DNA from: Iphione sp. A-MEVVRFRX5
Taxonomy: Eukaryota
Length of the DNA: 64,000 bases
Reading direction: 5' to 3'
Assembly: GCA_976226885.1 (NCBI GenBank)
Contig: OZ320322.1
Coordinates: 15,128,001 to 15,192,000 of the forward strand
Under the pieces are notes generated by a model. The model worked only from the letters and a program-made list of their open reading frames with translations. It made no database searches and had not been told where the DNA came from. This document shows, in pieces, positions 29,033 to 59,640 of this stretch. Position 1 is the first letter of the stretch. The number at the start of each line of letters is the position of its first letter. A program made the translations under genes and the position numbers.

Positions 29033-30500
29033 ATGTCTTGGAGTTGTAGCAAGTGCCAAATCACCCCGCTTTCAACTAAGTATAACCTGGATAGGCATGC
29101 TCGAGAAAAGCATAAAGATCAGATAGCCCGAGGAAGGATCCATTGGATGACGTGCCCAGACTTTCTCCTGCAACGAGACTGGGTTTGAGAATCACCTGGT
29201 GAAGAAACATCATGATGCTCTACTCTCATTTGCCAGGCAGAAGGACTTATTTATCATTTATTATTATTTATTTGCTGTCGAGCCTGCCAATTGGAAAATT
29301 CCTGCAACATCAGCGACCGACAAGAAACGCATTGAAGATACCTGTCTGATGCAGGATTGGAGGCAGCAGCCAGGGGAACCCGTCCTGCTGCGCAGGTGGA
29401 AGGTGTCAGAGGAAGGCTCCAAGACATAAGCCTCCACTTCACAACCAGCCAAGGCATCAAAGTGAGCAACCAGGTCGAAGAAAAAGCTAGAGGAAGGAGA
29501 AAATGAGGGACAGAGTTGTGCACTCGATGTTAGCGACCTAAGCCAATCTGTGTATGATACATCATCAGTGGGCGGGGCGGCTGAGGAAATCTTCCAAGCT
29601 CACCATGGCACGACCACCTCTACATCGGAAGACCAGCGCTCTGCCAAAGCAGAAGCAGGACATCAAACTTACCAGATTGCCTCTATCACCACCACAGACA
29701 CTGTCCAGGAGGCAATGTTGGAAGATGAGGCTTTGGAGGAACTAGAAAACAGACGAAGACAGAAGGATGTGCAGGTCCTCAAGGATGTAGAAGTAACCAA
29801 AGAAGTGGAAGAAGTAACCAAAGAAGTAGAGCCAGCAAGGCAGCAGCTGAATAGGGATGTTGAGCATTCTGTGGAGGAAGTCCGTGCCGATCCTCAAATG
29901 GAAGAGAAACCTCAGCGACAGCAAAAGGCAGAAGACTGACCACACACGATAAAACAGTCGGCAATCAAGGGGACAGGAAAGGTCCCAGATGCTTTTCGGA
30001 AGTGGATCCAGGCAACAGCGGACAGGCTGGTGCATCCCTTTTGTGGGGTGGCGCGAAGAACTCCCTCCAAGGCTGTGAAGGCAGCAGTAAAAATAGAAAG
30101 GCCCCTGGAGGACTGGGAGCAATAGGCTGCCAAACAGAAGTTTATCGTGTCCTTGTCGGAGGCTACTACCATCACCATGGGTACAGGGCTTCTCCCAGCT
30201 GGTGATCCATTAAAGCTGCTCTGAGATCAACCATGGCTACTCCTGCCTGGGTCATGCCAACCCGGGAACATGACCAACATGGGTTTGCCCAACGCCGATG
30301 AGAATTACAAGATGGAGCGACACAACGTGACAGTGCAACATCTTGTCATGCTGGATGAACAGCACCAAGATCCCATCACAGATACTGAATTGGAGGTCCT
30401 CCACATGATGGTGGAGGCGAAGCAGAAGGGGTCCCTCCAGGCCCAGATATGGTGGAATTCGGATCCACGAGGGGAGGTACTCTCTCTCCAAGATGTCTAG
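29033..30500 (+). pseudogene. Accessory ORF3 of element B: 2x C2H2, acidic linker, conserved C-terminal domain
   Basis: CSKC-x13-HAREKH; CPD..(frameshift)..ENHLVKKH; WKIP..WRQQPG; GDPLKLL*DQPWLLLPG..HNVT. Confidence 0.72.
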
Positions 30501-32599
30501 AACAGATGAATCGATGACAAACCTCCTATTTCTCCCCATCCATGATTGAAAGACATTAACAGAAAAATGACCCCTTCCCCGTTTGAAAAAAAATGAAAAA
30601 GGACTTATGGCTTCTACGAAGTCAAAACCTGAAAAAAAACAGAATAAAAAGAAAAAAATTACATTCTTTCAAAGGGCCCTTGGAGACAAACTTGAGCTCA
30701 AGTGTATGCGAGCTGATGTGAAAACGTAGGAAGAAGCAATCTGCGTTGTGGAAATTGAAGAGATGCTAAAATGAAGAAAGTCCACAACATTGTGACAGAG
30801 GATTCGCTAAAAGAACAAATCCAGAAGCTTAAAGAGGAAATGCAGTCAAGACCTGTGGCAGCTATGATGCCTAAGATGATAAAGGCAACAATGCCAGCTC
30901 AACCTAAAGTGAATCTACGACGAGAGAGAGCTAAAGTCAAGAGTACTGGATGGAATGCGCAAGGTAAATTTGTCTGTTGGAATTGTTTCTCAGAAGATCA
31001 TTTTAAGCAAGACTGTCCAAAATTGAAATCTGAAGACGCTGAAGTTTCTAGAAAGAAGGGAAATGCAGAAGTGCCATCATCCAGGAACAGCGAATGGGTG
31101 CAGTGTCAGGTAGAGGTCTGTACCTTCCAGCTAAGATTAAAGGAGAATCCATGGTCTGTCTCATAGATACAGGAGTAGAAGTCACTCTAGCTCAAGATAA
31201 GTTTTGCCATGAGCACCAGAAGAGTACTGAAGTAGTTCTAACAGGGATCACTGCAGAACAAATCCCTACTTCAGGCCACAGAATCCTTGAATTTCATGCT
31301 CATGGACGCATATATGAGACCCCTGCCATTTATGCTGATGTACCAGAAGATGTCATATTGGGAAGTTGTTTCTTAGAAGATCAAGGAGCTGTTTTGAATT
31401 TTCAGAGCAAAATGTCAAGTAACAGAAGTATAAACATCCTGTGAATTTCAAGCCTGAAGATAAGCCTAGTTAAGATTGTTGCAGAGTTGCCTGTTTATCT
31501 ACAGGATTTGTTTTGGTGCTCTGTCAAAGAGTTATCAGTTGATTTACATTCTATGGTTAAGGACATTTTATTAGAGTTTATGGATTCATTCTCATCAGGC
31601 TCAGGAGACATAGGATGTACTGGAGTAATAAAACACCCAATTGATGTCAAAGGACATCTGCCTATAAAGCAGTGAGTAAGACAATTACCTTTACGAAAGT
31701 AACAAGATGATCAAAAGTACAAAGATGCTCGATGCGGGTGTGATCTGTGAAACCAAAAGTTCATGGGCCAGTCCAATAGTCATGGTAAAGAAGAAAGATG
31801 GATCCACCAGATTTTGCATGGATTACAGGAGATTAAATGAGGTGACATGAAAGGATATCTATCTCTTACAACAGATTGACAACTTGTTGAATGCTGTACT
31901 AGGATCTTGTTATTTTTGCTCATTGGACTTAGCAAGTGGCTATTGGCAAGTTGAAATGGAACAAGGAGATACACCCAAAACGGTGTTTGTGAATGAGGTA
32001 CTTTGTGGATTAACATGGACAGGATGTTGGTATATTTGGATGATATCCTGATTTTTGGGAGAGATTTTGAAGAAGTTACTCAATGTCTACGCCAAGTTAT
32101 TCATTGTCTGACAGTTGCAGGATTGAAGATGAAGCCGAAAAAGTGTGCGTTATTTTTTACAGGATATTACTTTTCTTGCGCATGTAGTGACTAAAGAGGG
32201 AACATCCACAGATCCACAGAAAATTGCTGCTATCCAGAATTTGGATTCAACAACAAATCTGACTGAAGTCTGTACTTTTCTAGGTATGTGTTCCTATTAT
32301 TGAGTGTATGTACCGGATTTTGCTATGCGGTCCATGCCGCTCAGGAAGCTTACCAAGAAGCATGTTCCTTTTAAGTGGGGACCTGAACAACAACAAGCAT
32401 TTGAAGATTTAAAATCTGTGCTTACATCTAGTCCTGTACTAGGATATCCATTACCAGAAGGTCAGTATTATTTGTATACCAATGCTAATAGAACCGGAAT
32501 TGGAGCTGTGCTCTCCCAGATGCAGGATGGAAAGGAACAATTTATCGAATGTGAAATCTAGGTATTACTCTAGAGGGGGTAATGTTGTATCTCTCAATG

Positions 32600-34400
32600 G
32601 TGGCAACAGAGGGCACCACTGGTAACAAGCTGTTGGCTGAGGCTCCAACCCCACTTCACTTTGAACAGAGCTGCCGATCATGTTCAGACATTAGCGCCGT
32701 TTGTGTTCGGACATTAGCACGTCCACTTGCCATCTGGTTGAACACTAAAAGGAAACAAGTTCTTCGCTTAGGCATCCCACAGGATACTGCAGGGAAGCCC
32801 TCCTTGAACACTTGAAAGATTTCTCCGATGAGGCCTGCCACGTTCCATTGCCCCACTGTCTCACTGGAGTGGGCAATTATGGGAGGCATACAATTTTGGT
32901 TGGTTATCCCTCGATGATACAGCCTGAATTGAGTAGCTCAAGGGAAGGGCAATGCATGCCTTCCAGCACTCAGCTTCAGGGTCCAGGCCACAGGATAGGT
33001 TAGTGATATGTCCTGACTGATTATCTTCGAAGTGCAAGTAACAACCTCCACATTCTTTGCAATCTGTCTCCGCCATTCATGCCTGCCCAGTTTGATGTAC
33101 TTCCTCACTAGCCTGCCCTGGAAGGAAGTTGATGTACTTTCTCTTTTTGCGACCAAATAATGTTTTTATAATAAAGATTTCTTGAAATGTAATGTATGTT
33201 GGGACGACTCATTGGTCCATTTCCTCAGGTGGGTCGCTGTTGTTGATGGTAGCAGGTGGAGAAGGACTGAACATCTCCACCTCAGGAATCATCTCCAAGG
33301 AGGCATCGAGGACGGCAGATGGTGACGTCGGGGTTGTATTGGCCAATGTCAGGAGGGCATTGTATGCTTCAGGTCCATCCGGATGCACACTGTTGAACAT
33401 GTCTTGTGGTGACATTAACTGCATGTTAATAATTTCCTCCTCTCCCAGGGCCCCAGCTTGGGCTTTGGGAGTGCCAGGGGGAAGCACAGTAAACACAGTT
33501 TTTTTCATTGGGAGGAGGAAGTGCAACCATTTCCATCCCCAGCATATTGTACATAAAGGGCACCCATACTATGAATAATCAGTTGTCATGCAGTTGCAAA
33601 CGATGTGGTGGAGGGACAGCAGAGATTGGGGCCACAACAGCATCTTCATCAGAATTGCTGGCTGGGGAAGGAGGTGGGGTGTTGGCACTCTCCTCGAATA
33701 GTATGGGAGGAAGAAGGCAACCATGGAGGGACAGGATATACACCCTTCCCTCCAAGACTATATCCTCTGGGGCAAGGAGATAAGTTTGCCTAGCATCACT
33801 GAGTCCCCTCCTCCCCAAAACAGTCACCATAAGTGCCCCTTCATGACAGATTGGGTGCACTGTCATCTCTGGGATCCAAAAAGTGAGTGGAGGGCTTCTG
33901 TCTGGAACCCCAGAACGGTGAATGCGAGTTGAAATAGACATGGCTGCGTCTACCAAATTTACTTGGATTTCGGGCCTGAAAAGCCTTTGCATTTTTTAAT
34001 GGTCAGGCAACGGTAACAAACAATCATCCCTGAATCAGTCAGGGTTGCTATCAAACTATGAAGTGGCGAAGCCCTGCAAAGAAACGAAAAATTAAACATG
34101 AATGAAAAAAGATCCACTGAAAATTGAAGAACTTTTGGAAATCCATCAAAATAACATTCAGCATGCACCTGAAAAAGAAATATTTCAGTAAAAAAAAGAA
34201 CATACTTACATTTTTGAGTCTGGAGATGGTCTTGTTATAGGAGCAGCAGTGGTGATCTGTGTCGAAGTTTCTTCTGGAAATAGCGGAAAACAGCAGCAGC
34301 GGTTTCTTTGGCTATGGGCTAATGAACTTTGATGAGATGTGATCCACACCCCATATATACAAAGTTTGGATCTGAAATGAACATCAAAAACTGACATGAT
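32600..34400 (-). pseudogene. Antisense accessory ORF(s) of element B2, possibly spliced
   Basis: Frames 33992-33579, 33526-33209 and 33156-32656 (one internal stop); candidate intron 34074-34209 (AAAT|gtaagt ... ttttcgtttctttgcag|). Confidence 0.45.
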
Positions 34401-34572
34401 GATAGGGTTATGTTAGGTTGCATAATGTTATCCGGTGCGCTGGGTGTGGCAGTGATATTTGAATAGCCCGCCGCTGGACTGCCTCGCATGATCCGTCCCA
34501 TCATGCACTGAACAGGAACGTCTTCCCGGATTGCATCCTTTCAGATCACGCCATTTGTCTTGAAGAAACATC

Positions 34573-36000
34573 ATGGTCATGGCAAAGCATCTGTTTTGTG
34601 ACATCTGCCAAGCTTCGATCAAGGGCCAGAGCAGGCTGAATAAACATTGTGTGAATGTACATGAGATCACTGCCAGCAGCCAACTCCTGAAGATGATCTG
34701 TCTGTGGTGTTCCGACAAGAGGTGTGCACATGAGTCCAAGTCCTTGATGGATCATGTCAAGAGCCAGCATGCCAGTCACGCACACTATGCCATGAGAATA
34801 CCACCAACTATTTGCTCTAAATAACTACTGATGGGAGATCCCGTCAGATTTCGATGAGGGATCTGTGCTCACTATGGAGGCACAAAATCTAGTGTTTGCC
34901 TGGAGACAAAGACCAGGGTAAATTGTCACTCTACGTGGAAAATCCATCGTTGCTGAGGCTGAAGGTAAACCCTCAACTGCTAGCACCAAGAAACAACCCG
35001 GGACATCCCCAAAATGGACCCGTGCGAGTTCCCAATCAGAAGCCACCAAGTTGACCCAAAGGAAAAAAAAACTACAGGAGGAGATCGCTGACCTGCAAAC
35101 CAGTAAATTAAAGAAGAAGGAGGACAAACCTGAACCGGACTCTCCAACAGGGAAATTAGATATCAGCGACATCAGCCTCATCTTGACCACCCCGTCCATG
35201 GAGGCAGATATGAAGCAACTTATGGAGGAGGCAGGGCAAACTTTATTGAGCTTGTCGGACTCTGTTGATATCACAGATCTGTCTCAGACTGATTACAATG
35301 AAGAAAGGCAGTAGACAGGCGAAGTAACAGGAGAAGAGGAGAGAACTGAAGATGGTAAGGGCAAACAAAAGCAAGAAAAAAAGCAAGAACAGAAGAAGAA
35401 TGAGCAAAAGCAAGAAGAATAAAAGACAGGTGAAAAGCTAAAGACAAAGGAAACAGAGGAAGAAAAAGAAAGACAAGAGAAGGTAACATCGAACATGAAA
35501 GAAACCAAGGAAGCGCAGAAAGAGCAACCAAAGATAAAGGAAGGAGGAAAGAAGAAACAGAAAATGAAAGGAACTGAGCCACCTCCCCCTGTGAAACCTC
35601 CACCACAGCGACCTTCAACCCTCCACCAGTGGACAGCAGAAATTGTGGATAGTGTGGCTCCCCATACATGGGAACTGTATGGACCGCCCTGAAGAACAGT
35701 GTACAGCTCAACATCCATATGGAATGGCTGCCGAAGAATTGGGTAGATTGGATGCTGGAACCAAAATATCTGGCCTCCTATTCATTAGCAACCATTGAGA
35801 CACTGAAAGAAGGAAGTTGGGCACCAGGAGACCCCTTCGACCCTCTGCAGGATCAACCTTTCCTGTTGCTCCCGGGGTAGAGGAAGCCAACAGATCCCAG
35901 TTTCTGGAGTGGAAACAAGGACTTTCAGCAGCATAATGCCACCATCAAAGCCATAATGATGCTCCATAGACATGCAATGTATAAGGACATTTGGTTGACT
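34573..36000 (+). pseudogene. Accessory ORF3 of element B2: 2x C2H2, Lys/Glu linker, conserved C-terminal domain
   Basis: CDIC-x12-HCVNVH; CLWC-x14-HVKSQH; WEIP..WRQRPG; WLPKNWVDW..GDPFDPLQDQPFLLLPG..HNATI. Confidence 0.78.
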
Positions 36001-37164
36001 AACTGAGAGGGTCAGTTAGTCTTGGCCTGAGAAACCCGCCAATGACAAGAGGGCACATAACAGGCATGACTGCAAAACGAATCCGAGGCGGTGCAAGAAA
36101 CTCTCTCCTGGAAGAGATGGGCACCTAGGGAGTGAGCGGACTGTTCCTTTTAACCCTAATGGCATCCTTGATTGATCTAATATCCTGAACTGTAATTTTA
36201 CATGCCTAATGCTGTCCTTGATTATTTACAGATATCTGACCATGTCAGATATTCTGTTGTATTGTGCCTGATGCATGTATGTTATTAATTGAATCTGTTT
36301 CAGCACATGGATTGAATTCCAAAGACATTTTTATTTACGCCTTATGCTGTTTTTGATTCACTGTATTTATTTAAGCATATTTAACCAATTTGACTCATCA
36401 AAGGAGCTGTGATACCAAAAAAAGAGATTATTTCGAATTTCAGTTTTTTACGCCATTAAGTAATGAATCCATGAAAGGCAGATCCTTTTCATACTTTTTA
36501 TTTTCTTGTCACACTCCTTGTATACTATATCATATTGTCATGTACTTAATTATTAAGGAAATTCTTGGATCAGAAGGAGAGATATTTATTTCGTAATTTT
36601 ATTTTCCTCTATACCTCAGTATTTGAGATGGTGATCCATTTCATATACATTTTTTTTTTGAGGGATTACTTGTATTCCGTGTTGGCAGCTTCGGTCTTTA
36701 TTCTAAAAAAAATGCTTAACTCCCTTAAGGAGAAGAAATAAATATTATTCTGATTAGTTGAAATCTATGACTTATTTTTTAGTGCCTACCTTAATGGATT
36801 AAAGCAAAACCTGTAATTTAACTTCAAAAATAAGGACTTGGAATAGCCCAGGGAAATCTCTTATCAGACAAGTACATCTCACCCCTGAAAACGTTCATTA
36901 AAATTTAGAGTAATTTAATAAGAGAAACTTATAACCAAAGTAATTTCTAAGATGTTTTATTAATAAAGGAATTGGTTCCCACTTAAAGAAGGTGAGAATG
37001 TGGTGTGTGCATGTATGTAAGCCGAGCACTCTTGCTCAGTGAATTCGTGAAGGGTGGTTTGCGTAAGTTGATCTGTGTCAGGCATATGTCTAGACAGTAT
37101 ACTATTTTTGGTAACTATTATGTAATGCTGTGATATATAAACCTGCATGTTTTCTTAAATAAAC

Positions 37165-39127: not shown

Positions 39128-41735
39128 TCACACTCGTACCGTTTGAACTAGGCTGCTCTTCGGCAGCTTATCCAAATCCTTTAGTGGATCTGGCAGACTG
39201 TTCCAGATAATTGCACCTCTGTACTGGATGCTTCTCTTGAAAGTCTTTGTTTTAGGGCAGTCAGTTTTGATTCAGAGTGACTTACCAACTCGAGATTTGG
39301 TGCCTTTTGCCATTGGGAGCAGGCCTAGTCTTATCTGTCGGTGTATGGCAGATAAGGCACGTCGAGATGCCATGTCTTCCACTCTTGGTATGGACCCTAG
39401 ATCGCAGATTGTTTTGACTGTCATTCTTGGGTTGATCTGGATTCACAACCTAATACAACGGTTCAGGTGTACTTGCAGGTTCTAGATCAGTGCTTTTGAA
39501 CAGCCGAACAGCATGACAGCACCATACTCCAGATGGGGCTGGACGAGCTCCTTGAAAAGCTTCAATCTTGCGCTCCATGGCAGTAGCCTCTTTACTCTGG
39601 AGATTTTTAAGGCTGCTGCCCACATCTTTCTTTTGATGTCATTAACCGCCTTGCTGGCATTTAGTTTGGCATCAAGAGTATATCCGAGCAGCTTCACTTC
39701 TTTAGCTAGGACCAATTCTAAGCCATTGACCTTGAGGTCAAGGGGTGTCCTGGCTGCTCGTCCCAAGGGCATGTAGCAGCACTTTCCTTCCGACAGAAGT
39801 AAGCCTGCTGACTGACACCAGTTTGACACAGCGTCAACTGCCCTTTGGACGCTGCACAGGCGCAGTAGATCACGAGCACTTACTACGACCAACAGGTCAT
39901 CTGCGTACATGACGGCCCTAGCGTTATCTGGCAGGTTTGCTAGCAACTCATCAATGACCATGCAGAAGGCTATTGGGCTGAACACAGAGCCCTGTGGCAC
40001 TCAGTGCTCGGTTTGCCTTAAGGACGAGTCTTGACCCATACAGCTGATGAACTGAGTTCGATTGCTGAAATAGCTCTTGATCATTCTACAGACTCTCGCA
40101 CACCCTCCGGCTGCTTTCAAGCAACGTAGTACACTAGAGGAAGGCACTAGATCAAATGCCTTCCTCATGTCGAAAGTTAACAAGCAGCAGTACATACCTG
40201 CATTGTTGAGCTCATTGGAGGTGCCAAGGATTGACACTAGCGCAGTCTCCGTGCTTCGCCCACGACGGAATCCGTGTTGGTTCGGGCTGATGAACTGAGT
40301 CTTCTCAAGATGTTTCACTAACTCGGTCTCAAACCATTTTTCGAATAATTTCCCCAGTAGTGGCAACAACGACACAGGTCTGTAGTTGCCCAATGTGTTT
40401 CGATCACCATGTTTTTAAAGAGGGGTGATGCGAGCTGTTTTCCACTCTTCTGGATAATGTCCTGTGTCCATGATCCTGATGAAGATCCATTGTAGGAAAT
40501 CCAGGTTCAGCATCAGAAGCAGCTTGAGTATCTGTGTTGGAATGCCAGCCACTCCCGATGCCTTGCGGACATTCACCCCCTTTACCAATGGACGGAGGGA
40601 GGTTGGGGGTAGGACAATCAGATCGAACGTCCCCTGGTGGTGAGGAGAGGGATTGCAGGCCCTTGGGGGTTCTGTGTAGCTAGCGAGGCGACCCCATCGA
40701 CGAAGTAGTTGTTTAGCAACTCTGAGACAGACTCTGAAGAGTTGTTTACTGTCGCATCCTTGTCAGGCAGTATCATGGATGATTGTTTCCTGCCCATGAC
40801 ATCATTTAATACTGACCATACTCCGGAGCTGTTGCAGCCAGTTGCTTTTAATTTGGAGCTCCAGTAGCATTTTCGGTCTTGTTTGAGGGACTCGCGAACT
40901 TTTTTGTTCAAGAACTTGAAGATCCTGTATGAATCGGCACATCTGTGTGATCTCCACTTGTGGAAGAAATATTTTTTATCCGCAATTAATTCAAGAGTGC
41001 CCTCACTGGGTCGGGAGCCGTCATCTCATTTTCGAGATTTGACGGTACGTACTGGGCATATTTCGTCCAGTGCTGTCCGAGTGTAGTCAGCAAAGTGACG
41101 CCAGGATTCTTGAGGTTCATCAAGAGTGTTGACACCATGCTCCGCGACCTGTTGTTGTAATTTGTTTAGGTCAACAGGGCCCCATTTCCATATTTCCTTT
41201 GTTTGTGTAACCTGTTTGTGACAGCCTTTCTTAATTCAGTGATACCTACTCCACTGCGCTGCTTCCCCAAATAGTCAAAATTGAAGTCCCCTGCCAGGGT
41301 AACATCACAGCGTTTATGCCTCCTGACTTCTTGAAGCACATTGTCTAGTGCTCTGATTGAGTCTTTCATCCGATCATTGGGTGGTTGGTACACGGCAACT
41401 ATCAGGTGAGGTCTGCGTTTGCCAAATTTGAAGAGCAAGCCCAGAAACTCACATTCACTCCCATCAATTGGGAAGTGGATAACTTCCTTTATAGTTATGC
41501 CAGTTTGAGTGTACACTCCTAAGCCTCCACCCCTATGTTTCTTTTCACTCGTCCTATCCAGACGGGTCAGATGATAGCCATCTATATCTACCTCGCTGTC
41601 TGCATGTATATTATTCAACCATGTCTCGGTAACAATACAGACATGGGCATCTTCTCCCTGGAGATGCAGGGCAAGATCTGCCAACTTGCCCTTCAGACTT
41701 TGTATATTATACACAATCAGCTCGAAACCTCTCAT
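39128..41735 (-). pseudogene. LINE ORF2 (AP endonuclease + RT), fragmented
   Basis: YNIQSL, TETWL and GDFNF in APE; NYRPVSLLP, KAFD, PQGS and YADD in RT; C-terminus YRGAIIWNSLP, with stop at 39128 after reading through a premature TAG at 39482. Confidence 0.93.
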
Positions 41736-42600
41736 TGATTGTTATGGAAGTGTATTATGTCTAGCCATGTGCCCCTACAGCCGCGAGTCACCTGATTTTA
41801 GCTAGAAATAAGTATGTCTACTCAAGTCAATATCAGTAAAGTCAAAACGGTCCCTATCTCCTTAGCAATATTACCTTAAGTTGGGTATATTGATTGTCAC
41901 TGTCGCCAGGCTATGTACAGTCATGCTAGCACCACGTCAACACTGAGCCCCTTAGTGTTGTGTCGTATTTGGCCACTCACGTCGTACACTATCACATATG
42001 CCTTATTCTTGTGTCCTCTCTTCCATGCAATTTATATTCTACGACAGTCACTGCTATAGCTACTGGCTTTTATATGCACATTCGTACCATATTCCGATGC
42101 ATACATTACACTGCAAACTGTACTCATCCTGTACCGTCTTCATCAGTCAGTATCACTCATCATCAGGTTTTAATGTCAGCACTCGTTTACTAATCTTCCC
42201 ATAGAGATTATTAATACAATACACAGCAATAGAGATGAATCAACCGATTTTGGTCACAGAGTCATTGTTCCAGTTGTTGATACTAGTGTGATGCACTAAC
42301 CAGTCTTGTATCATATCTGCTTAGTGTTTTAGTGTGCAACTTTTGGGACCGATAAGCCGTGACAGGTAGGCAGAGACAGATAACTAGATAACAGATTCCT
42401 TCTCTATTGTGATAGATCTGATACATGAGGGGACAGTTAGTGCATTTTGGTGCAGATAACCCAAGTAAAGACCTTAAGTAAGTGAAGGGATAAGAAATTT
42501 TAATGCAATGAAACCACCAAGATTCAGTGTGAAATTAAAACCTAAGTTCAGTTGTTACCATACTAGCCTTGGCAAAATTAAGTACAACATGTAGTGTGAT

Positions 42601-42977
42601 CTGTATAGAAAGTAAGTGAAGGTTTGTTGAAACTAACTTATACACAGGTGTTGAAACATCTAGAATGTATCAAAGCCTTACAAATGCGGCCGTCATAAAA
42701 GAAGTAAGATCATGTACAACACGTGGTGTTAACTGTATATAATGTTAGTGAAGGTTTGTTAAAACTAACTTATACACCGGTGTTGAAACATCCAGAATGT
42801 ATCAAAGCCTTACAAACGCGGCCGTCATAAAAGAAGTAAGATCATGTACAACACATGGTGTTAACTGTATATAATGTAAGTGAAGGTTTGTTACAATTAA
42901 CTTATACACCGGTGTTGAAACATCAAGAACGTATCAAAGCCTTACATGCGCAGCCGTCAAAAGAAGTAAGATCATGA
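42601..42977. repeat. 132-bp tandem repeat, ~2.9 copies, in the LINE inter-ORF spacer
   Basis: Unit starts GT(A/T)AGTGAAGGTTTG at 42612, 42744 and 42876. Confidence 0.92.
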
Positions 42978-43367
42978 GTCATGAAATTTGAGTTTCACAG
43001 AGAGTGACTTCTTGAAGAAATGAGTCCTTAAACTCTAAATGGAGTTGATGCAGTATATGGCTGCCAGCCTTCATGAATTATTGGCACTTTTCATGCATGC
43101 CGTGTGAGTTGACAAGTTCTGATAGTCCAAGATCACAGGACTAGTGTCGGATATGGCACATGATACCTGAAGTACTGATTATGACAAATACCTAGAACGT
43201 TTTAAGACTGAAATTTAAGTAACTGGAGTGTCATAACTATAGTACCGATAATCAAGCTGTGCATCAATAATTACGTCAAATGTTCTATTTATGATGCGGC
43301 AAAGTCTCCCAGTCGGTCGTAACCATGTAGCGGCAATGCACTAATCATTTTACAAAAATTTACTCAT

Positions 43368-44010
43368 CTAATCTTGTTTGCCTGAGATAATGCTTGTTGC
43401 GAGGTCCTTCAGGAAGAGCGTTAGCACATGCGACCAGATTGCACTAACCACCGGAGTGACCCGCTCCTAGGTACTGACCTTTCACCGATATATGGTTGTT
43501 TATGTAGTCGTTAACGGGTAAGTCAACCCTTGGTAGCTCGATTCCATACATGCTGGCTCCCATCTTGCAGAAAATGTTGTGCGTGGAGATGAGATAATCA
43601 ACCAGTAGTTGTTCCTCTGGCCCTACGATGTCTGGTTCAAGGTGACAAAGCAGCATACCGGCCATCGGCAGACACAGCAGACCAGGTCCTGTCGCAACGG
43701 GACCGCTCGCCCATCTCCTCAGCTTCCCCACATAATAATGCAGGGTCTCCAGGTAGCGAAGTGGGCTTCGATGATGGGTAGCCCACTGTCCTGTTTCCCA
43801 TCTCATTATTTCCTGACATCCAAATGGGATGAGAACCATGTCAGAGTTGGTTACGTCGACGTAGAGGCGTTCACGCCATAGCTTTTTGTAGGAGCCCTTT
43901 GATACATGCAGCACGTGAAGAGTGATGTGGGGTAGTTCCTCCTTCACGATGTCCTCCACAGCTTGTACCATTCTGTCATCAATCACCAGTAGTATACGCA
44001 GACGATCACA
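43368..44010 (-). pseudogene. SGNH/GDSL esterase-like ORF of LINE copy 2
   Basis: RILLVIDD..SDMVLIPFGCQEIMRWETGQW aligns with copy 1 YDLIIVCIGLHDIIKKETGQW; frameshift near 43450. Confidence 0.55.
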
Positions 44011-44131
44011 GCTGCGAAAAGAATCAGTGACTTAGTGCAGAGTCAGTTCACAACAGGGGCAGGAATTGTGGCACATTTTAAAAACAAGCTACACAATCGA
44101 CAACTTTCAGGGAGGGCATAATGTGGACTAG

Positions 44132-45284: not shown

Positions 45285-45549
45285 TGAGCGTGAGGATCCC
45301 CTTGGTCTCCCTCACGGACGTAGATTTATGACCTCTGGAGCCTCAGGATTTGATTAAGGTTGTAGAGACGATTTTTTGCCCATTGTGAACGCAGGTGATC
45401 ATGTATGTAGTTGGCACACGGTTATGCATGTCTCACTCGGCCACTATGTCCATATAAATTATACTTTAAAACTTCGAAGGTCCCTCTGGGATCCTACTCT
45501 CACAAATCCCAGATTATTCTGAACTTGGCAGAAAAGTGATCAGAACTCT

Positions 45550-46898: not shown

Positions 46899-46986
46899 AC
46901 CTGCTTTTCCAAAACTCTTTTAATTTACTGACTTTCAACAAATAAATTGTCCTATGAGAAAATTAGAAATTTATAATAGAACTAAC

Positions 46987-50009: not shown

Positions 50010-50143
50010 TTGTACTCCAGCATATTTCCTTGCCCAAATCTTGCATTTTGTCACACATAAAGCTGGTGTAAGCAAATTTTCATACCCAGTAGAAATAGTC
50101 AAATCTCTGGAATGTTTTTCCTTAAAACATCCAATTCTGACCA
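50010..50143 (-). CDS. Host gene exon: first half of WSC domain 1
   Basis: tattgcag| acceptor, CAA|gtgagt donor; RIGCFKEKHSRDL..LTPALCVTKCKIWARKYAGVQ; phase 1 to 0; upstream exon not located. Confidence 0.9.
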
Positions 50144-50538
50144 CTGCAATATAAAAATTCAGGGGCAATTAAAAGATATGAGAGTATAACATCAGCAAAG
50201 GGCTTGGCTTTTCCCAGAACAAAACATTAACAGCTGTTTCATCCAATCTTTTAAACCGATAATTTTGCCCTTACCCTTAGATTTTTAACCTGAAATGATA
50301 TATTTGCCATTGTTATACATCTTCATTCTGTTTCTGGCATAAACATTTCGTAAAATGAAAACTGAAAAGAATGCTTTCCATTTGACGGATTTCTGTTTGA
50401 TATTTTGATACAGAGATTATTTATATAGAGTGTGTGTGGTAAATGCAGGCCAACTGGACTTGAAATTCATAATACAGGTAGCTTTCAATAGGCAGAAATT
50501 GGAAGCATATTCTAGTATTCTCAAGAAAAATTAAATAC

Positions 50539-51065
50539 TGTGGAGGAGAAGGCAGGCTGCCCTGTGGGAGTGGGGACTGTACTCTGTGACCTGCTGGAAG
50601 CAGGGACCCAACCAGTATTGTTAGGGACCCAACCAGTTAGACAGGGAAACAAGCAGTGTTGGTAAGGGGCCTGTGGGGCCCAAGCAACTGGTAGGGGGAC
50701 CCAACCATTCCTGTATGGGGACCCAGATAATACATTTGATGCCTCCAGGTTTGATTGACAGATGGAACAGACAAGAGTTATGTTGTATCAACTTTATTCA
50801 ATTTTTTGATACATTGATCTGGTCACATGACATATGTATCTGCTATAAATATGGGCCCTGTGTGGCCAATAAACATGTCTGCACTTGAAGCTACCTTGTG
50901 GAACTTGTCTCTCTGGGGATGCTAAGGAACCATTAACTACTTGGAGCTACCATTAAGGGATTAAGCGGGATAACCAATCAGATTAACTGAAGGAATACTA
51001 AGCCAGGAATAGCAGCAATATAGTTGGATTATTCCAAGAAGAGTGACAACACACATTAAATTACA
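50539..51065 (+). repeat. 5' LTR of element C
   Basis: TGTGG...TTACA termini, TATAAA and AATAAA, four GGGACCC motifs; roughly low-90s percent identity to the 3' LTR by eye. Confidence 0.95.
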
Positions 51066-51066
51066 C

Positions 51067-51084
51067 TGGTGTCAGAAGTGTGAT
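51067..51084 (+). promoter_or_regulatory. Primer-binding site, tRNA-Leu
   Basis: TGGTGTCAGAAGTGTGAT, one mismatch to the canonical Leu PBS. Confidence 0.88.
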
Positions 51085-51095
51085 CCTCTGACAAG

Positions 51096-51720
51096 ATGGC
51101 CACAAGGTATGAGGTAGTGGATGATGAGGTGCAGATTTGGGTGCCCAGTCTGGTGCCGGAAGAGGAAGAGGATCACTTTGAGATTGCTCCGGAACAACTG
51201 TTGAAGATGAACACCCTCAAGCTGGAGAGATTTGATGGGAAGACCATGGACTGGGACAGCTGGATTGCCCAGTTCACAGAATGGGCTGATGCTTGCTGGT
51301 GGGGAGAAGACACCAAGTGCTCCACCCTGACATTGTCCCTCACAGGAATGGCACGGATGTACTATGGGGACCTGCCCACAGATGAGAAAAAGGATTACGT
51401 GACTTGAGTGGCTGCCTTGGAGCAGTGCTTCGGATGGTGTAGGGATTGGATTGTTGCCATGCAGAAGCTTTCCAGCACGAGATGTCAGAAGGATGAGGAT
51501 GTACGGGACTTAGTGGACAGAGTCCAGCGCATGGTCCATACTGCATATCCTGATGTGATGGGAGATACCCGGGAGCATGCAGCCATGGCCGCCTTTCAAC
51601 AAGCTCTTGCAGACACACTGCAAGTGTCTGGAGGCGAAATGCACCACCTTGGATGAAGCTATTCAGGTGGTCAAGACACAAGGGCATTTCTGGGCCAAGA
51701 GATCTCCTTTGGGCCCGTGA
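51096..51720 (+). pseudogene. gag: Gag of element C (truncated)
   Basis: KLERFDGKTMDWDSWIAQF..LSLTGMARMYY capsid-like motif. Confidence 0.82.
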
Positions 51721-51893
51721 ATGGAAGACCGCCCGACCAAAGGGAAAGTATCAAGTTGAGCTTAACTCATGATCTGACACTCACGGCGGGGGAGGGGCTG
51801 GCAGCCCCTCTAATTCCCTCAGGGGGCACCCCCATCCTCGTGGAGGGAGTAGGAGAGGAACAGATGTAGAGGGGCATCTTTGGAATTTGATGC

Positions 51894-54800
51894 GTGGTCA
51901 GGGTCACCCTGCCACTGTGGAACCTGGGGCAGACAGAGGTGGTAGTGAAACATGGGACCGTGCCTGCCAAGGGCCACCCTGTACTGGTGGGGGAACCCTC
52001 ACCAATACCCTTGACCCCTAGACTCCAGAACATTTGGCAGGAAGCAGAAGGGGTAGTGGAAGAGCTGCTAAGACAAACTAAGGCCCTGCTTAGCAAGGGG
52101 GAACTTGGAGCCCTTGAGGACATGCTTAGAAGACATGAGGCAGTGTTTGCATGGTCTAAGGGGGACCTTGGTCAAACAGACCTGGTCCAACATCGCAAAA
52201 AACACTACCGACGGGGATTTGTTTTTACTACCAACGTCATGTTCCCCAGTTCGCTAGTGTGGCAGTTCCACTGAACTGCCTCACCAGCACCTGCGTGAAG
52301 TTCATGTGGGGCCCAGAGGAAGAGGCCACCTTCCAGAAGTTTAAGGAGGCCCTAAGCACCAGCCCCATCTTGGGCTATCCGCATCCCAAGGGGAGGTACT
52401 ATTTAGACACAAACGCCAGCAATGTTGGTATAGGGGTGGTCCTAGCCCAGGAACAGGAGGGCCAAGAAGCCGTCTTAGCCTACTATAGTAGAAGCCTCAG
52501 CAAAGCCAAGGGGTGGTATTGCATGATGCGGCAGGAGCTGCTGGCAGTGGTGGCGGCCCTTAACCCTTTAACGACCAGGAAAAATTAGGTTTTTGCCTCT
52601 GGAAATAGAGGTAGAAGCTTATCTGTGTTCCTAACAGGAGTATAGAGATAGACCTGATATTGTGTCATACATCGTTGTAAACCTTGGGAATTGTACTTTG
52701 ATTGAACATCAATTTTGTTCCTATAATTTAGTTGTCATGGTAACAGGATAGCCCTGAGTATAGGCGATTTTTTCTGAAAAAAATGAGAAATTTACACTTA
52801 TTCAATTATATAAGTTATAAATATTGGTTTTAGAGAAAAACTTACTATTGAGCAAATGTTCAGGAAGTGATTTGCAATCTTTTGATACCTCATTTTTTGC
52901 TCTCTATTAATCAAATACATTGTATCATGAGCTGCCATTTTGTATCTATCATGCAAAAAATGTAAAATCCTATGCATCAGCTGCATCATTGATATTGCAT
53001 GAGCAGTCTTTAGGTGTTACCATGGTAACAAATTGAATAATTGATAAATCATATCAATTAGATCTAAATGCTTATTAGTCAGTCTAACTCTTTATATGTA
53101 ATTTTGGTAGGAAACATAACATATCTTCAACAGATTTGGCAAATATAATATGTGTGCCTATTGCAAAACACTATGTAATGCATCACATGATATATATGCC
53201 CATTGCTAGTAAAATGCAACTGACATTTGTCTGTTGTATTCTATCTAACTGAATAAAGAAGAGGACAAACTATGAAAAAGTTGCTCAAAATAAATCATAA
53301 ACTCAAATTCTATGGTATGATTTAAAAATATATTGCAATTCTACTAATTGCTTGAACTGTAAAAGAGTTTACTTTCATCATAGTACATATGTATAGTGGT
53401 AAAAATAGCTGCTGACTGTAATTTATGCAAATGAGGAAAGTCATGTGATCAGTTTTAAAGGCTTTCCTCTTAAAACAGTGCATTTTTCCATAACACCTAA
53501 GGAGAACACCATATTTTTGTCTTATTTTTACAGAAATAGAGAGAATATCTTCAAAATTCATGTTTTTAAATCATCACGAAGTTGCATCGGACAAAAATGT
53601 CTGATTTTACCATTGTTGGTCATTGAAGGGTTAAGCACTTCCACTTTTACCTCTACAGACAAGAAGTTATAGTGCGGACAGACAATGGGGCTGTCAGCTG
53701 GCTGAGTAAAATCAAGGACCTGGAAGGCCAGCTGGCTTGTTGCCTCGAATGGATCAGACAGTACCGCCTGTAGCTGGTACAATGGGCCGGGTGACTTAAC
53801 GCAAACGCCGATGCCTTGTACTGGCACACTTGCCGCCAGTGCAAACAACCACACCTGGAGGAGCTGCACCTGGAGGAGGAAGAGATGGAGGCACCCCCTG
53901 TAAGAGTAGACACCAGGAGCCAAACCGTCCCAGCCCAGTCATGAGAACTGCAACAGGCACAGTTGCAGGACAAATCCATCGGTCTGATACTGCCCCTTTG
54001 AGAGGACTGCGTGGATCAGCCCGCTTGGGAGGATGTGTCAGCATTGCGCACCGCTGCCAAAGCCCTCTGGTGGTAATGGGACCGGCTGGTGGTTAATGAG
54101 GGCCAGCTCCAATGGTGATGGTATGGATTGGGGGTGGAGCTATCCTGACTGCAGGTGGTGGTCCCCATTGAACATCGGGAACAGTCCATCCAGGAGGCTC
54201 ATGGAGGACAGAATGGGGCCCACCTAGCCGCTGGATGCATGGCTTACCTGGTTTCACTAGCATACTATTGGCCAGGAATGCAGAAGGATATAGAGGCCTA
54301 CTGCCAACGCTGCCACTGTGCACTTCTCAACTGATCACCAACGACCCCAAACCCCTACCTGACCTACCTGTTGGGGGAGCCGAAGGAGAGGTGGTCAATG
54401 GATGTGGCAGGCCCCTTTCCCTCAACATCACGGGGAAATCACTATGTCCTGATGGTCGGGGACCACTTCACCAAGTGGCTAGAGGCCTTTGTGATGCCAG
54501 ACCAGAAAGCTGAATGGGTAGCTACCATATTAGCAGAGGAAGTGATAGCACGTTACAGGTGTTTCCTGAAACTGCATAGTGACCAAGGCACCAATTTCTG
54601 TAGCGAGGTCCTCACTGCGCTCTGCACTTTCTTGGACATCAAGAAGACTCTGACCACCCCCAGACACCCGCAGAGTGACAGGTTTGTTGAGAGAAGTTTC
54701 TGGATCATGGGAAGAATGATCAAAGCCCACTGTCATGAGACTGGAGACAAATGAGATGAAGCGCCGCCGTACCTGCTTATGGCATATCGGGCGTCCCCAC

Positions 54801-55350
54801 AAGCTAGCACTGGCTACACTCCCAATTACCTGATGTTTGGTAGGGAAGTGGTACTCCCAGTACACGCCTTAGTCCGGGTTTCCTCAGCAGCTGGCAGATG
54901 CCAGGCCACTCCTCGAAAAGGTGGCGGACACCACATGACACCTACAGGAGGCCTACAAGAGGGCAAGGCATCACCTGCAATGTGCGGCCCGTACACAGGC
55001 AAGGGCACAAGACTGCTGGATGGCGGGACACCCCCTCCAGGAGGGAGATGTGGCTTGGTTACATGAAGCACAGCCCCTGAAAGACAGGAGCCCCAAGACG
55101 CACTTTCCCAGGACGGGACCGTGGCTGGTTGTGAAAAGACTGGACGATGATCGAATGGTCATGCAGAGGATGCATCAGGGAAAGGCTAAAGTCGTACACC
55201 ACAACAGGTTGTGAGAATACAAAGGAAGAGACCCACCTCGTTGGATCAATTCTTGGGAGAGATGCCAAGCGGAGCAGTCTGATATGGCGAGGGAATCTAT
55301 GGTAGCAGGAGCAGGGAAGTTGGCATAGTGGAAGATGGCTGTTGCGCAAT
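51894..55350 (+). pseudogene. pol: Pol remnant of element C (RNase H and integrase), split by a MITE
   Basis: SPILGYP, YLDTNAS, LAYYSRSL; MDVAGPFP, VGDHFTKWLEAF, HSDQGTNF, TGPW; no YxDD present. Confidence 0.9.
52564..53630. mobile_element. Non-autonomous piggyBac-type MITE (1067 bp)
   Basis: TTAA TSD at 52560-52563 and 53631-53634; TIRs CCCTTTAACGACCA and CCCTTCAATGACCA; removal restores VAALKHFHFYLY in RNase H. Confidence 0.93.
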
Positions 55351-55399
55351 AGTTCATGGGGCAAGGCGGGAAGCTCGGACTTGGAGAAGGACTCAAAGG

Positions 55400-57370
55400 A
55401 CCTGCGTCGGCTTAATGGGTGGCCGGAAGGCAAAGAAGAGCCTGAGAATGAGCCCATGAGGAGACGTGGACAACCGGGAGGCACTCAAAAATCTGGAGGT
55501 ATTGGGAAGCACCTGGAGGCACTTACCTTGGAAGCTTCGGTAGGAGGATGGCCATCTTGGAGCAGTAAGAAGGCCAGGGAGGGAGGACAAGCATCCTGGG
55601 GTTGCCTTGAAATTTCCAGGAGAAGATGAACCTCCTGGAGCACGCCAAAAATGTTTACAATAGGGCTGGCAGATGCCCTGGAGGGGACACTTTGAAAATG
55701 ATTCGCAGTACGTGACGCAGGCTTGCGGCGAGACGAAATGCGTAAGGGCGACCGAGTTGTGGTCCATTTCCTCTGGTAGTTGCATCCCTCTGGAAAACCC
55801 AAGCCTAGTCGTGACTCCTTTTCCTCTAGAAGATGATGGGGGGCCAAGATGCAGTCCCTGTCCTCTGGATGGAATATAGCCAGGTATCGGCAGATTACAT
55901 CCGATGAGAAGCGTAGCTGAGGCAGAACTGGAAGGGGGGGTTAGGATACCAGTGAAAATGAGCACCCCCCTAGCGTTTCAGCATACTACCTACCTGTTAC
56001 CTGAAGAACCATTCCCTGTGAAGAAGATGAGGCTGGAAGTAGAAGAGACAACAGAACATTTATTACAGATATGTATAAGGGGAATGGAGGCAAGTGATCC
56101 GCTGCATGGTAAGTCCTAGGGACAGCAGCTACTCCAACAGAATGGGGAGGCAGGCAAGATCACCCAACCAGTCTGCAATGCCCTCCACCAAGGCTCACCC
56201 TAGGAGAGGCCCGGTCTCTGACGACCTGACCAGGGTGGGGCGGGAGGGCGTATCTCTCATTGACACTGACTCCGGCAATGGGGACCTTGTAGGTGAAGAT
56301 TCAGCTGAGCTGCTAGAGGAACTGCTGGAGCTCAGAGTGGGGAACCAGTCTGGCGAGGCGGCCCTAGGCGGTGTTCGGGCTGGGAAGAGCCCAGATGACT
56401 CATCCTCTGAAGATGTCCCATAGTGAGGGCTCCATGGGTCGAGCTGCTCAGTGGTCCATGAACCCAGCGACCAAGAGCGGTCACTGACTGGTGACGGAGA
56501 ACGATGCACGGCTGGGCCCTCCAGCCTGGCAAGGCAGACTCCTACTGACCGGAGGCTCTGCTCTGGGGAGAGTGTTTCCGCCTGGACAGAATAGCGAGGC
56601 GAGGTGGGAGGTACAGGCGGCATCATTGGGCTGTGGGGACACAGCACAGAGGGCTCCATCAGATAGATACTGATTTCCACCTGGTGATGGGGGCCATAGA
56701 GGTGAACATGGCCTGGAGCTGGGATGTAGAGTGGCTTGGTTAAGACGGGATACAGGTCATAAACCCGGATCATGGGTCCTGGAGTGCCGATGTTGATCGA
56801 GCAATAGTAGGTGTCTGGGGGACAACTCCTGCAAGCAACAAAGTGGGAAGAGCGTGAGCAGTAGCATGGAACATTAACAGTGGCATGGAAGGTGAGGAAA
56901 AGGAGAAGGGGCTAAAAAAAAAAGGAGAGCCTTACCAGGTCAGCCTCTTGAGGGTAGACAACAAGCAAGAAGTCACGAAACAACTGAGGAACCTCCAACT
57001 GCATGGTAACAGGTTACTGGTCCTTGGAACAACCCTACCTGTCATCAACCAGGGGGTACCCCACCAGCTCACAAGCAAGGGCCTTGAGGTCAGGGGAGCC
57101 ACAAGGAAGGTCAGCTGGAAAGCACATCCTACAAGGAAGAGAAGAACACTATCCTTAGGTGACAGTCTGGACTGGTTAACCTTCCCCCCTCCCTGTTCAA
57201 ACCTCCAAGTTCACTGTAAGAGCCAGGAGGTAAAAGTAGGGAATCCCTGTGACCAATAGGAAAGAATGATCCTCCCCTGTCAAACACTGCATGACCATCC
57301 GGTATCCCAGGCAAGTAAAACCCGTGTTGGGAAAGGCCTGTGAGGTAGGATGGTATCTCCATGGTCACAA
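55400..57370 (-). pseudogene. Antisense accessory ORF(s) of element C, possibly spliced
   Basis: ORF 56195-56773 extends in frame to an acceptor at 56829; candidate intron 56829-56935 (CTG|gtaagg ... ttgcttgcag|); second acceptor near 57131. Confidence 0.45.
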
Positions 57371-58497
57371 GCAGGGGTGTGTGTACACTCCGACGTCACC
57401 GCGAAGACTAGCGAAGCGGCGAACCGCGCCGACTTTTATATGTTGCAGTGCGGGACATCCCGATCGGGGTGCCCTGAGCAAATTGTACAGAGACCCGAAG
57501 GATTTTTTTCACTAAAAAGAGGTGCAAATGCAGCCAGGAGGGGCCCCAAGTGCAAACATAGGAGCTTGAAAACAGTTGAGAGACCACGAAACAGGGGGGG
57601 ATATAAAGGCTTTGTCTCAATTTCTCAACAGGGACCCAACCAAAGCAGTGACCGGGGAATCCCTCGGGGAACTCCGAGCAGAACTGGAGCTTCGTTCTTG
57701 TGTTTGGCCCTGAAAATCGAAGCTTAGTATAAAACTGGGTGAATAAGAATAGGGAAAATGAGCATAGGGACCCGAGACGGAGTAAGAAGAACATTTTACC
57801 TGATGATCCCCACAGGGAGGGACCTGACACAAGGATACCCACATGGACTGGCCGATTTTATCCGCCAGGGGGGGGGGACCCAAAGTGAAAACACACTTTT
57901 AGGCTGGTCAAAGTTCGCCATTTAGGGGGGGGGGGTAGGAGTAATATATGCTCTGGGGGACCCATGCAGACAGCCAGAGGCTCGTTTTCGGATCATGGAG
58001 ATGAATGTCGTTCGCGCTGAAGATATTTTGAAGAAAACAGGGAGAAACATGTGAAGATACTAGCAGAGACATGGAGATAGGGGAGAGGGACCCATCAGGG
58101 CTACAGAGAAGCCAGCGACAAGCGTGGAAACCCACTAGACAGGCCTAAGAGTGACCTCGATCAAAGACGTCGCACGGATGGGACCCAAAGGGATTCTCCC
58201 AAAGGCGTAAGTGCAGCAACTTTCATTAGGGGACCCGAATTGAGCTGATACAAAGAAACTTTTTGTGGGTGACCTGTAAAGACTCTCACCCGGTACCCCG
58301 GACGAATGTTACTCAGCAGGGGGGGACCCGACTGACTGCCATTACAAGAAGGGGTATGCCAGCTGGGTGCCATCCAGTGCCCCAAGGAGGGGACCCGACC
58401 AGTTGTCGGAGGGAGGCACTGAGAGGGGAGGACCCCCCGAGGGAACCACTGCAGTCGTGGGTCATCCATCACCCTGAGAATCAAGGATGCCACGCAA

Positions 58498-59640
58498 ATG
58501 GGTGGCATAGCCCAAGCTCAAGAAGCGGGTGCTCAAGAAGGATTACCCCCTCCCCCTGGCACCGAGCTTTGTCCCAAGTGTGTTACCCGTTGGCCGTTTT
58601 ACCCGGGAACGTCCATAGAGCGGCACGACGATGCGGTGCATAAGGGGAAGCGGAGGAGGGGCCTGTATTGTCTATATTACCCTTCCATCATTAGTGATGT
58701 GCACTCCTGGACTGCCCATGTGCATAAGTTCTACCCATAAGCAGCCAAGATGGGGCTGGTTAAAAAGCCATACAGAGGACTGTATGATGTCACCCCAACA
58801 GAAGAGGCCCAAGGAGATGTCCTGGACGACACCCATGCAGAGGTCATCCTTTGCGCCCGAGCTCTAAGAAGGGAAGACTGGTCCATGAGCCAGGAGGAGG
58901 CTGAGGCAATACTGTTGAGTGCTGCGCCATGTGCTACACTGGCCAAGACGCGTCGATGGGACATGCCGACCCTGCCCGACACTGCCCTCTGACCACCAGA
59001 CATGGCAGGTGGGGTGGGGAACGCCACCGCTCTGAGGTCAACCAGGAAGCTGAAAGACGTGATGGCCGGCACCCGTGTGGCTAGCAAGGCTGAAGCAGCA
59101 ACTTCAAGCTATCAGCTGCCAGCACTGCTGGCCCAATCCTGCTCGTCAACCAATGACTTGAAGGTGGGCATCCGGAGTACCCCTCGACGGACCCGTTCGT
59201 TGGCAGGAATTGGTGGACTCCTGTTGTGCCAAGGGGACTGTGCATCCAGAGCCTCCCCGAGACTCTGCAGTGGCCCCCTAAAGGCTGGTCCACCTGGTCG
59301 CCAGCTAAGAGGCTAATGGTGAGTGCCTCTGTGGCTTGGGTGGCCCACTTGGCTGAGAGGAACCCCACTGCCCCACGATCCCTGCTGGCCCCCATCCATA
59401 AGAGGCCCTGGCTACTACTACCATGACTGCGCCTCCCACAGCCCGAGGACTGGGGAGATCTGGAGGCCACCTATGGGTGTCATAACCGCACCATAGATGC
59501 CGCAGAGTGGCTAGTGAAAGACTTTCAGCCCGGTTTAGGCTGGGTGGAAGGCCCTCAGGTCGACGAGGCTCTGTGGCAAGGGGAGGCGGCCCTCAACCAT
59601 AACCGATGAGAGGAGCGTGACTCCCTCATGGCTGATGTGT
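58498..59640 (+). pseudogene. Accessory ORF3 of element C: 2x C2H2 and conserved C-terminal domain
   Basis: CPKC-x14-HDDAVH; degenerate CLY(Y)..HVHKF(Y); WPPKGWSTW..SASVA..PWLLLP..HNRTI. Confidence 0.72.

Follow-up and report, generated by a model that had tools for sequence, protein, structure and literature searches.

What does a zinc-finger gene do in the place where retrovirus-like elements carry env? The question is raised by a stretch of 64,000 nt (OZ320322.1:15128001-15192000; in the following the window) within the 1.18-Gb genome of Iphione sp. A-MEVVRFRX5, in which three decayed Ty3/gypsy elements, B, B2 and C, each contain downstream of pol the remains of a gene for a protein with two C2H2 fingers, here termed ORF3. 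An initial annotation had suggested that the product is a DNA-binding regulator or an anti-silencing factor. This suggestion is supported by selection on the gene and by family-specific DNA words that appear to follow the finger helices, and the best reading of the sequence data is that ORF3 represents an element-encoded, sequence-specific activator or anti-silencing factor, for which we infer expression, binding and the direction of the effect.

The three coding regions lie on the + strand after pol as annotated, in B at 29033..30497 (finger domain 29033-29402, C-terminal domain, or C-domain, 29988-30497), in B2 at 34573..36135 (34588-34951 and 35662-36108) and in C at 58498..59696 (58558-58920 and 59253-59696), with B2 slightly longer than described (to 36135) and C reaching to about 59700. 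Translation of all three shows two C2H2 fingers, a low-complexity middle part and a common C-terminal block. They had been described as open reading frames, but none of them is open: B contains five stops in the main frame and a frameshift within finger 2, B2 frameshifts and stops, and C one frameshift plus stops. The motifs P-[WF]-L-L-L-P, H-N-x-T-[IV] and S-x-S-x-A can be seen directly in 3/3 copies and W-x-I-P ... W-R-Q-x-P-G in B and B2. A tryptophan motif exists in the family as well, but in the form W-P-P-x-x-W instead of the W-x-P-K-x-W-x2-W that had been assigned to all three copies, and B has lost it. Profiles of the C-domain and of the N-terminal domain were built from intact relatives. 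A six-frame scan of the window with the C-domain profile matched the three loci only (E 1e-30, 2.9e-25 and 1.8e-33; next match E 3.9), and the N-domain profile matched the same three. Because the profiles include close kin of the window copies, these E-values express family membership and not independence.

The window copies are members of a group of Ty3/gypsy elements that lack env and are abundant in this genome. Searching the genome with the three C-domains yielded 4758, 4920 and 4258 first-look candidates, which are not copy numbers, as the sets overlap and 150 candidates were scored per search; in one subfamily, an open frame of at least 580 codons was found at 17 of the 28 top loci. Sixteen elements, selected for an open ORF3, were fetched, and in 13 of them the long terminal repeats (LTRs) are 98.6-100% identical. 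These elements contain gag and pol in Gypsy order, no env, and a primer-binding site which we take to resemble tRNA-Leu ends. The Ty3/gypsy hallmarks are present: a TG...CA LTR pair, the primer-binding site, a polypurine tract, a CCHC knuckle in gag, and the pol order protease, reverse transcriptase (RT), RNase H and integrase (Pfam on L066, L084 and L101). Our own RT tree, with 11 rows and no reference elements, did not resolve the clade placement of B, B2, C, a neighbouring family D and the metagenome contig L124, the last two of which are described below.

Counted from the ATG, the ORF3 proteins comprise 449-665 residues (689 in L124) and contain basic clusters. An alignment of 14 diverse copies gives two blocks separated by a variable linker: the finger domain and, with ~170 residues, the C-domain. 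The hydropathy maximum over 19 residues is 0.70-1.57 in 17/17 proteins, compared to 2.07 for the env of a further window element, A, so that no membrane segment is apparent, and Pfam searches gave no env family match. ORF3 thus shows neither the membrane segment nor the fusogen domain of an env protein. A spliced, env-like mRNA was considered too and not adopted; a clear acceptor just 5' of the ATG is found in L124 and is inconsistent in the families of this genome.

Of 59 pairs compared, 44 were saturated in dS; in the other 15, the ratio of nonsynonymous to synonymous substitution rates (dN/dS) was 0.01-0.16 for the finger domain, 0.05-0.23 for the C-domain and 0.10-0.38 for the linker. The ORF3 domains are thus under purifying selection, which together with the open copies in young elements bears out the view that the accessory protein is functional. 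Four young elements (L070, L103, L140 and L143) have lost most of pol but not gag, and their ORF3 is open. In B and C-b, pol, the LTRs and an antisense gene described below are 93-100% identical in 6/7 pairs, whereas the ORF3 DNA is just 53-62% identical, and highly diverged ORF3 cassettes sit on near-identical backbones (96-99%) in L101, L102 and L142 and again in L072, L076 and L134. Despite this divergence of the ORF3 DNA, the finger helix residues are constant within a family. ORF3 hence behaves as what seems to be an old, exchangeable cassette with a fixed DNA specificity; as to the reason for its variety, escape from host small RNAs or sensors would be a guess.

The ligands of the two fingers follow the pattern C-x2-C ... 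H-x3-5-H; seven of the eight are invariant and the eighth is present in 13/14 copies. The C-domain had not been recognised in the initial annotation, and it was matched to no known domain or fold here: no Pfam family was found, the best match to PDB sequences had an E of 0.54, Foldseek against the PDB and viral models gave no E below 0.001, VIA-align gave no Z of 5 (best Z 3.7 with a root-mean-square deviation (rmsd) of 3.7 over 62 aligned residues, and 3.5 with rmsd 5.9 over 80), and the best match in the ESM Atlas, 0.79, is a lead only. A single-sequence search with the C-domain of B found nothing. The models, with a predicted local distance difference test (pLDDT) score of 67 and 74, are mainly helical. 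As far as these models and searches go, the C-domain appears to be without a usable relative in sequence or fold, which would not in itself prove a new fold. Our verdict from sequence is that ORF3 most probably represents a real, functional and new protein family.

A second gene of these elements had previously been overlooked. Between pol and ORF3, an antisense frame of 224-365 codons occurs in 14/16 fetched elements, and in the window it is present, broken or partly open, in B2 (33197..34084, - strand, broken; 57-64% identity to the open gene of intact relatives) and in C (56150..56851, - strand; 55-59% identity to the L066 counterpart, donor-like GTAAG at 56935); in the window copy of B it was not detected. 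The antisense protein has no Pfam match, and its dN/dS of 0.05-0.49 (27 pairs) indicates purifying selection. At its start the gene has a short GT-AG intron, for which a strict GTAAG scan was positive in 9/14 elements. In four of these nine (B and B2), splicing would complete the ATG start codon by joining AT to G; in the other five elements, AT is followed by GTGAG or GTAGG. Window B2 retains the site with AT directly before GTAAG, its predicted intron extending over 34074..34209 (- strand) so that splicing would again complete the start codon, and the intact elements L080, L101, L102 and L105 have the intron as in window B2. For the C family, the exon before the intron is without an in-frame ATG in its best phase. 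The antisense gene and ORF3 stand head to head, 300-400 bases apart in B and B2 and 800-1600 in C, and therefore the spacer between them is predicted to contain an internal two-way promoter; in window C this spacer covers 56936..58497.

Each family carries a short word of its own, and ORF3 therefore likely binds its own element. The word of C-b is a dyad, TCG[TG]GG-NN-CC[AC]CGA, which occurs 9-12 times in the spacer, 5-10 times in the complete LTR and not at all in gag-pol (5/5 elements); the C-b spacers compared are only 70-74% identical. C-a has GGGCCC[AG]A (14 vs 0.2 expected), and window C has GGGACCC, with nine copies in the spacer at 57631-58390 (0.9 expected, 0/200 shuffles) and five in the 3' LTR (0.1 expected). 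These three words were first spotted by eye. For C-c, by comparison, a different word was predicted from the different finger helix before any C-c DNA was fetched, and CTTGGG-N4-CCCAAG was then found 23-25 times with varied spacer bases, ranking first in an unbiased dyad scan. Its GGG-N4-CCC core presumably resembles an NF-kB site; NF-kB as the reader was set aside in view of the conserved flanks and of the other spacings in sister families. The same words are present in LTR and internal promoter in C-a, C-b, C-c, window C and D, and they cluster ahead of TATA boxes and start codons, away from the tips bound by integrase.

In B and B2, the words are found in coding DNA, where hexamer counts were compared with shuffles of synonymous codons. 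CTCCGA is the top coding hexamer in 6/6 B elements (23-33 vs 4.5-6.8, z 7.5-10), which share a backbone, and the excess is also seen in five diverged B ORF3s alone (37 vs 9.9). In B2, words of the type [AG]TCCG are on top in 4/4 elements (z 5.0-5.7); B is without the B2 word and B2 without the B word. Both strands are used roughly equally (17/38 and 24/40). The C elements, L124 and the control element A gave z values of 4 or below, the env-bearing control peaking at z 3.2. Across families, the words thus appear to change together with the finger helices. The B LTRs contain in addition 3-5 matches each to GAA-nn-TTC-nn-GAA, presumably the heat-shock-element pattern (e.g. L101:8383-8891), none of which occur in C or B2 LTRs; the B LTRs are possibly stress-inducible.

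Relatives of ORF3 exist in other hosts. The C-domain profile gave five matches among 1.84 billion proteins, namely one repeat artefact (the top match P0004, which was rejected), two Mytilus proteins and two unnamed ones, and a search starting from the Mytilus protein returned 20 relatives, of which 12 are named proteins of four Mytilus species. In relatives of the Mytilus type, the same two fingers and the C-domain are accompanied by an additional middle domain; this domain, conserved after the fingers in P0007, P0030, P0031 and P0033, is lacking in the copies of this genome. One Mytilus gene model (P0018) joins an ORF3-type protein to an integrase. The metagenome contig L124 is an intact element with LTR, gag, pol, ORF3 and purine tract and with the same primer-binding site as family C; it has no antisense gene. 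P0018, P0032 and L124 suggest that the Mytilus proteins have their place in LTR elements. The C-domain of the Mytilus type was not found in this genome with P0033 as query, nor in metagenomes, and no relatives were found in viral contigs. In mussel genomes, genes of the ORF3 type are annotated as ordinary 'C2H2-type' or 'golgin-like' host proteins, because of which host zinc-finger counts are inflated. A Mytilus coruscus model (P0082) combines part of the C-domain with ankyrin repeats and a STAND NTPase, possibly by an annotation merge.

A neighbouring family, D, consists of young Gypsy elements (L158:1018-9627 and L160:3068-9374; 1767 first-look candidates) whose single frame of 2101 codons runs from pol through a word-rich spacer into a two-finger gene with a different C-domain; an RT-less form of 1350 codons keeps the fingers. 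The two fingers look classical, and no antisense gene is present. The word CTCCGCAC occurs in the LTR, the leader and the spacer before the finger ATG, and the stretch between integrase and fingers is promoter-like, with a TATA box, 13-14 words and an ATG of its own. In the C2H2 code as given in PMC12264921, Arg reads G, Asn reads A and Asp reads unmodified C, according to which the D helices R-1/N3/R6 and R-1/D3/R6 would read GCG-GAG. Exactly this hexamer, with its complement, ranks highest in the D LTR plus spacer (4 vs 0.08; 14 vs 0.63), compared to 2 vs 4.0 in pol. True membership of D in the ORF3 family was tested and the relationship was not borne out. We treat D as an analogue because its word was seen before the code was used and its C-domain is not detectably related.

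The host seems to act against these insertions. The observed-to-expected ratio of CpG is 0.14-0.28 in three non-element stretches of the host, 0.64-0.86 in young elements and 0.34-0.38 in the window copies. In six LTR pairs, transitions affect 26/233 CpG sites compared to 26/2322 other sites, a tenfold excess that makes germ-line methylation of inserted copies likely. The words themselves have decayed: window B contains 29 deaminated and 5 intact forms of its word, and window B2 contains 42 deaminated forms and one intact form of its own.

On balance we think it probable that ORF3 is made from the internal promoter, binds the word of its family and sustains transcription of its own gene and of the LTR, either by activation or by blocking methylation. 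In such a scheme, the internal promoter between pol and the 3' LTR would drive ORF3 and, in the opposite direction, the spliced antisense gene. The protein, having basic clusters and no membrane segment, would enter the nucleus, where its fingers would recognise the family word, with dimers forming on those words that are dyads. By occupying both the LTR and its own promoter, it would close a positive loop; in B and B2, the whole element would be coated with it. The linker and the orphan C-domain would then recruit activating machinery or keep DNA methylation off; this last step has, together with the direction of the effect, the least support of the whole mechanism.

Several observations weigh against this mechanism. 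In four proteins, Pfam scored a single finger, with 20.6 bits and thus below the cut-off of 27, and the finger of the Mytilus protein P0007 is likewise sub-threshold (21.9 vs 25.2 bits). The spacing is not the classical one, and a tryptophan in helix 2, long loops and acidic helices make the B, B2 and C fingers atypical. The C2H2 code fits the words of B, B2 and C only post hoc and with a free one-base gap. A clean match is seen only in D, where the code was applied to a word already noticed and where the C-domain shows no detectable relationship (2% probability). Because the six or seven families are related, the agreement between helices and words is not independent. The antisense gene tracks the backbone too, and its product might be the reader of the words in B, B2 and C. 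Over the 400 bases that precede the start codon, B and B2 share 7-mers with their own LTR at shuffle level (z -1.6 to 1.6). In L124, no coding hexamer exceeds z 3.2, and the candidate GGACA (LTR 9 vs 1.9) was chosen post hoc and shows no enrichment before ORF3. The control without ORF3 was a single element, and in 27 young C-a copies CpG transitions are only 1.5-1.8 times those at other sites.

All support for binding is blind to direction, so ORF3 might bind the same words and repress, as a self-limiting copy control or a confinement to one cell type, with the antisense gene as its counterpart. Words in the coding DNA of B and B2 would be compatible with a silencing coat as well, and the heat-shock-element-like arrays of the B LTRs could supply activation from the host. 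We regard repression as unlikely, given that subfamilies with open ORF3 are young and numerous, that Pfam recognised no repressor domain, and that the two described analogues with such a cis layout act positively, as reported in PMC5735166 and PMC517496.

A further possibility is a role on RNA, such as export or packaging of the unspliced genome in the way CERV serves Cer1; the readers of the words would then be host factors or the antisense protein. Binding to RNA or to protein is within the range of C2H2 pairs. The atypical fingers, the purifying selection on the antisense gene itself and the element L124, which has neither an antisense gene nor a clear word, would fit. Family D, however, has words and code-matching fingers and no antisense gene, the about equal use of both strands in B and B2 suits double-stranded DNA, and dyads and spacings differ even between close families of a single host, which host factors could hardly cover; an RNA role is thus unlikely.

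We consider it very unlikely that the module tethers the cDNA or the integration complex of the element, for nuclear entry or target choice, and has no role in transcription. The words do sit in the element's own DNA, and in D the fingers share one open frame of 2101 codons with pol like an extension of integrase; but B, B2, C and L124 have a separate gene 600-3000 bases after pol, the words lie near TATA boxes and start codons and not at the integrase-bound tips, and the D stretch between integrase and fingers looks promoter-like. Finally, 3/3 broken window copies might suggest that a host zinc-finger gene was captured a single time and has since been decaying neutrally. The probability of this is negligible: barring artefacts in the pairs, it is excluded by dN/dS values that stay far below 1 in all unsaturated pairs and by the recurrence of the layout in a second host (L124), besides open frames of many lengths and the lack of a match to any named host family.

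Returning to ORF3 as an activator or anti-silencing factor of its own element, it would work like VANC of Arabidopsis VANDAL transposons and Tas of foamy viruses, although membership of neither group is claimed. A second accessory gene, Bet, reportedly lies beside Tas, and ORF3 has a neighbour likewise, although an antisense one. As in PMC5735166, where VANC is described, an element-encoded protein is found in an element that the host methylates or, here, probably methylates, short words differ between related families and concentrate in non-coding regions and tandem repeats, and the protein consists of conserved domains and a variable region. VANDAL is, by contrast, a Mutator-like DNA transposon of a plant (PMC5735166), whereas the elements described here are LTR retrotransposons of an animal; ORF3 has a C2H2 pair and an orphan domain unlike VANC, the B and B2 words lie in coding DNA, and loss of methylation is described on the VANC side only (PMC5735166). 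No homology to VANC was seen, in that Pfam gave no match and the five C-domain profile matches among the 1.84 billion proteins included no named plant protein; no direct comparison was run. With Tas/Bel1 (PMC517496), ORF3 shares the position of an accessory gene before the 3' LTR and the presence of the same sites in LTR and internal promoter. Foamy viruses are Retroviridae with env, the abstract of PMC517496 names no zinc fingers, and activation is known there and would have to be assumed here.

CERV of Caenorhabditis elegans Cer1 and the antisense genes of Retand elements are looser parallels. CERV is an extra nuclear protein of an animal Gypsy-type element as well (PMC10309623), but it is made from a spliced mRNA and exports genomic RNA, and the abstract of PMC10309623 is without private DNA dyads; the two were compared by description only. 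Retand/Tat elements have, like the elements described here, a long region between pol and 3' LTR with a conserved, presumably regulatory antisense gene, which in Retand/Tat carries a TRP28 domain (PMC11963269); they are plant elements, and the antisense protein described here has no Pfam match and is paired with a sense zinc-finger gene. Gypsy retroviruses have, as element A does, a baculovirus F-like env in this position between pol and 3' LTR, but the env of element A has a Baculo_F match and hydrophobic segments, and ORF3 has neither. KRAB-zinc-finger retroviruses reportedly occur in a caecilian. Given the Mytilus relatives, the mollusc and annelid Gypsy clades (C-clade, Cigr-1, MolGy, MolAn) are likely the kind of element involved. 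The main texts of two surveys of mollusc and annelid LTR elements (PMC6238403, PMC8556966) contain neither 'ORF' nor 'zinc', and the available text of PMC2774666 mentions additional genes for Tat and fungal chromoviruses only. No prior description was found in the literature searched; Repbase, Dfam and subscription journals were outside its scope, and the elements may be catalogued there. What appears to be new is the intron-bearing antisense gene, the family-private words, the joint change of helix and word, and the CpG decay.

The remaining parts of the window elements are decayed to different degrees. Element B (+ strand) starts with a decayed 5' LTR at 23776..24165 (blastn with the LTR of the intact relative L101, 79-82%), followed by the primer-binding site at 24168 and by broken gag (24189-25533) and pol (25578-28429), both with internal deletions as judged by tblastn with intact relatives. 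B has no 3' LTR and runs into the 5'-truncated B2, of which the end of gag and pol as far as RNase H remain at 30658..32549 (+ strand), integrase being missing. Element C (+ strand) is bounded by a 5' LTR at 50539..51063, with four copies of GGGACCC, and a 3' LTR at 60712..61230, which is 94-95% identical to it and has its five copies ahead of a TATA box; the primer-binding site is at 51067, and gag and pol (51084..55316) are broken by deletions and one insertion. Element A (1563-11609) is a Gypsy element with young LTRs (99%) and some stops in gag-pol; its env is an open, baculovirus-F-like frame of 832 codons at 7567-10065 (Pfam Baculo_F, E 1.6e-6). Long - strand frames at 19210-23692 and 39482-45311 belong to other elements, the latter resembling a non-LTR element with endonuclease- and RT-like motifs, and a 132-base unit is present in three tandem copies at 42574-42969. 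Outside the window, a B-family copy is inserted into a Polinton-like element (L123:1-8840) with frames that by eye resemble integrase, packaging ATPase and DNA polymerase, and an uninterrupted frame of 712 codons in the joined L121/L122 (10713-12848) resembles, also by eye, a class C G-protein-coupled receptor.

To our knowledge, it is largely open how animal retrotransposons evade DNA methylation and heterochromatin, and C2H2 fingers are known mainly as a weapon of the host against retrotransposons; here, the element appears to carry fingers of its own that are aimed at its own DNA. More tentatively, and possible rather than probable, a widespread class of animal LTR retrotransposons might encode a sequence-specific anti-silencing factor of its own. 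This two-finger protein would co-evolve with a private word, in most cases one with a CpG, in the LTR, in the internal promoter and even in synonymous codons, and would shield the family from host methylation, as an old cassette swapped between backbones and accompanied by a spliced antisense partner whose start codon is formed only on splicing. If true, animals would have their own counterpart of VANC/VANDAL, equipped with a new effector domain. Several related families that differ in helices and words coexist in one genome, which makes the idea directly testable, and the C-domain could be a new chromatin effector.

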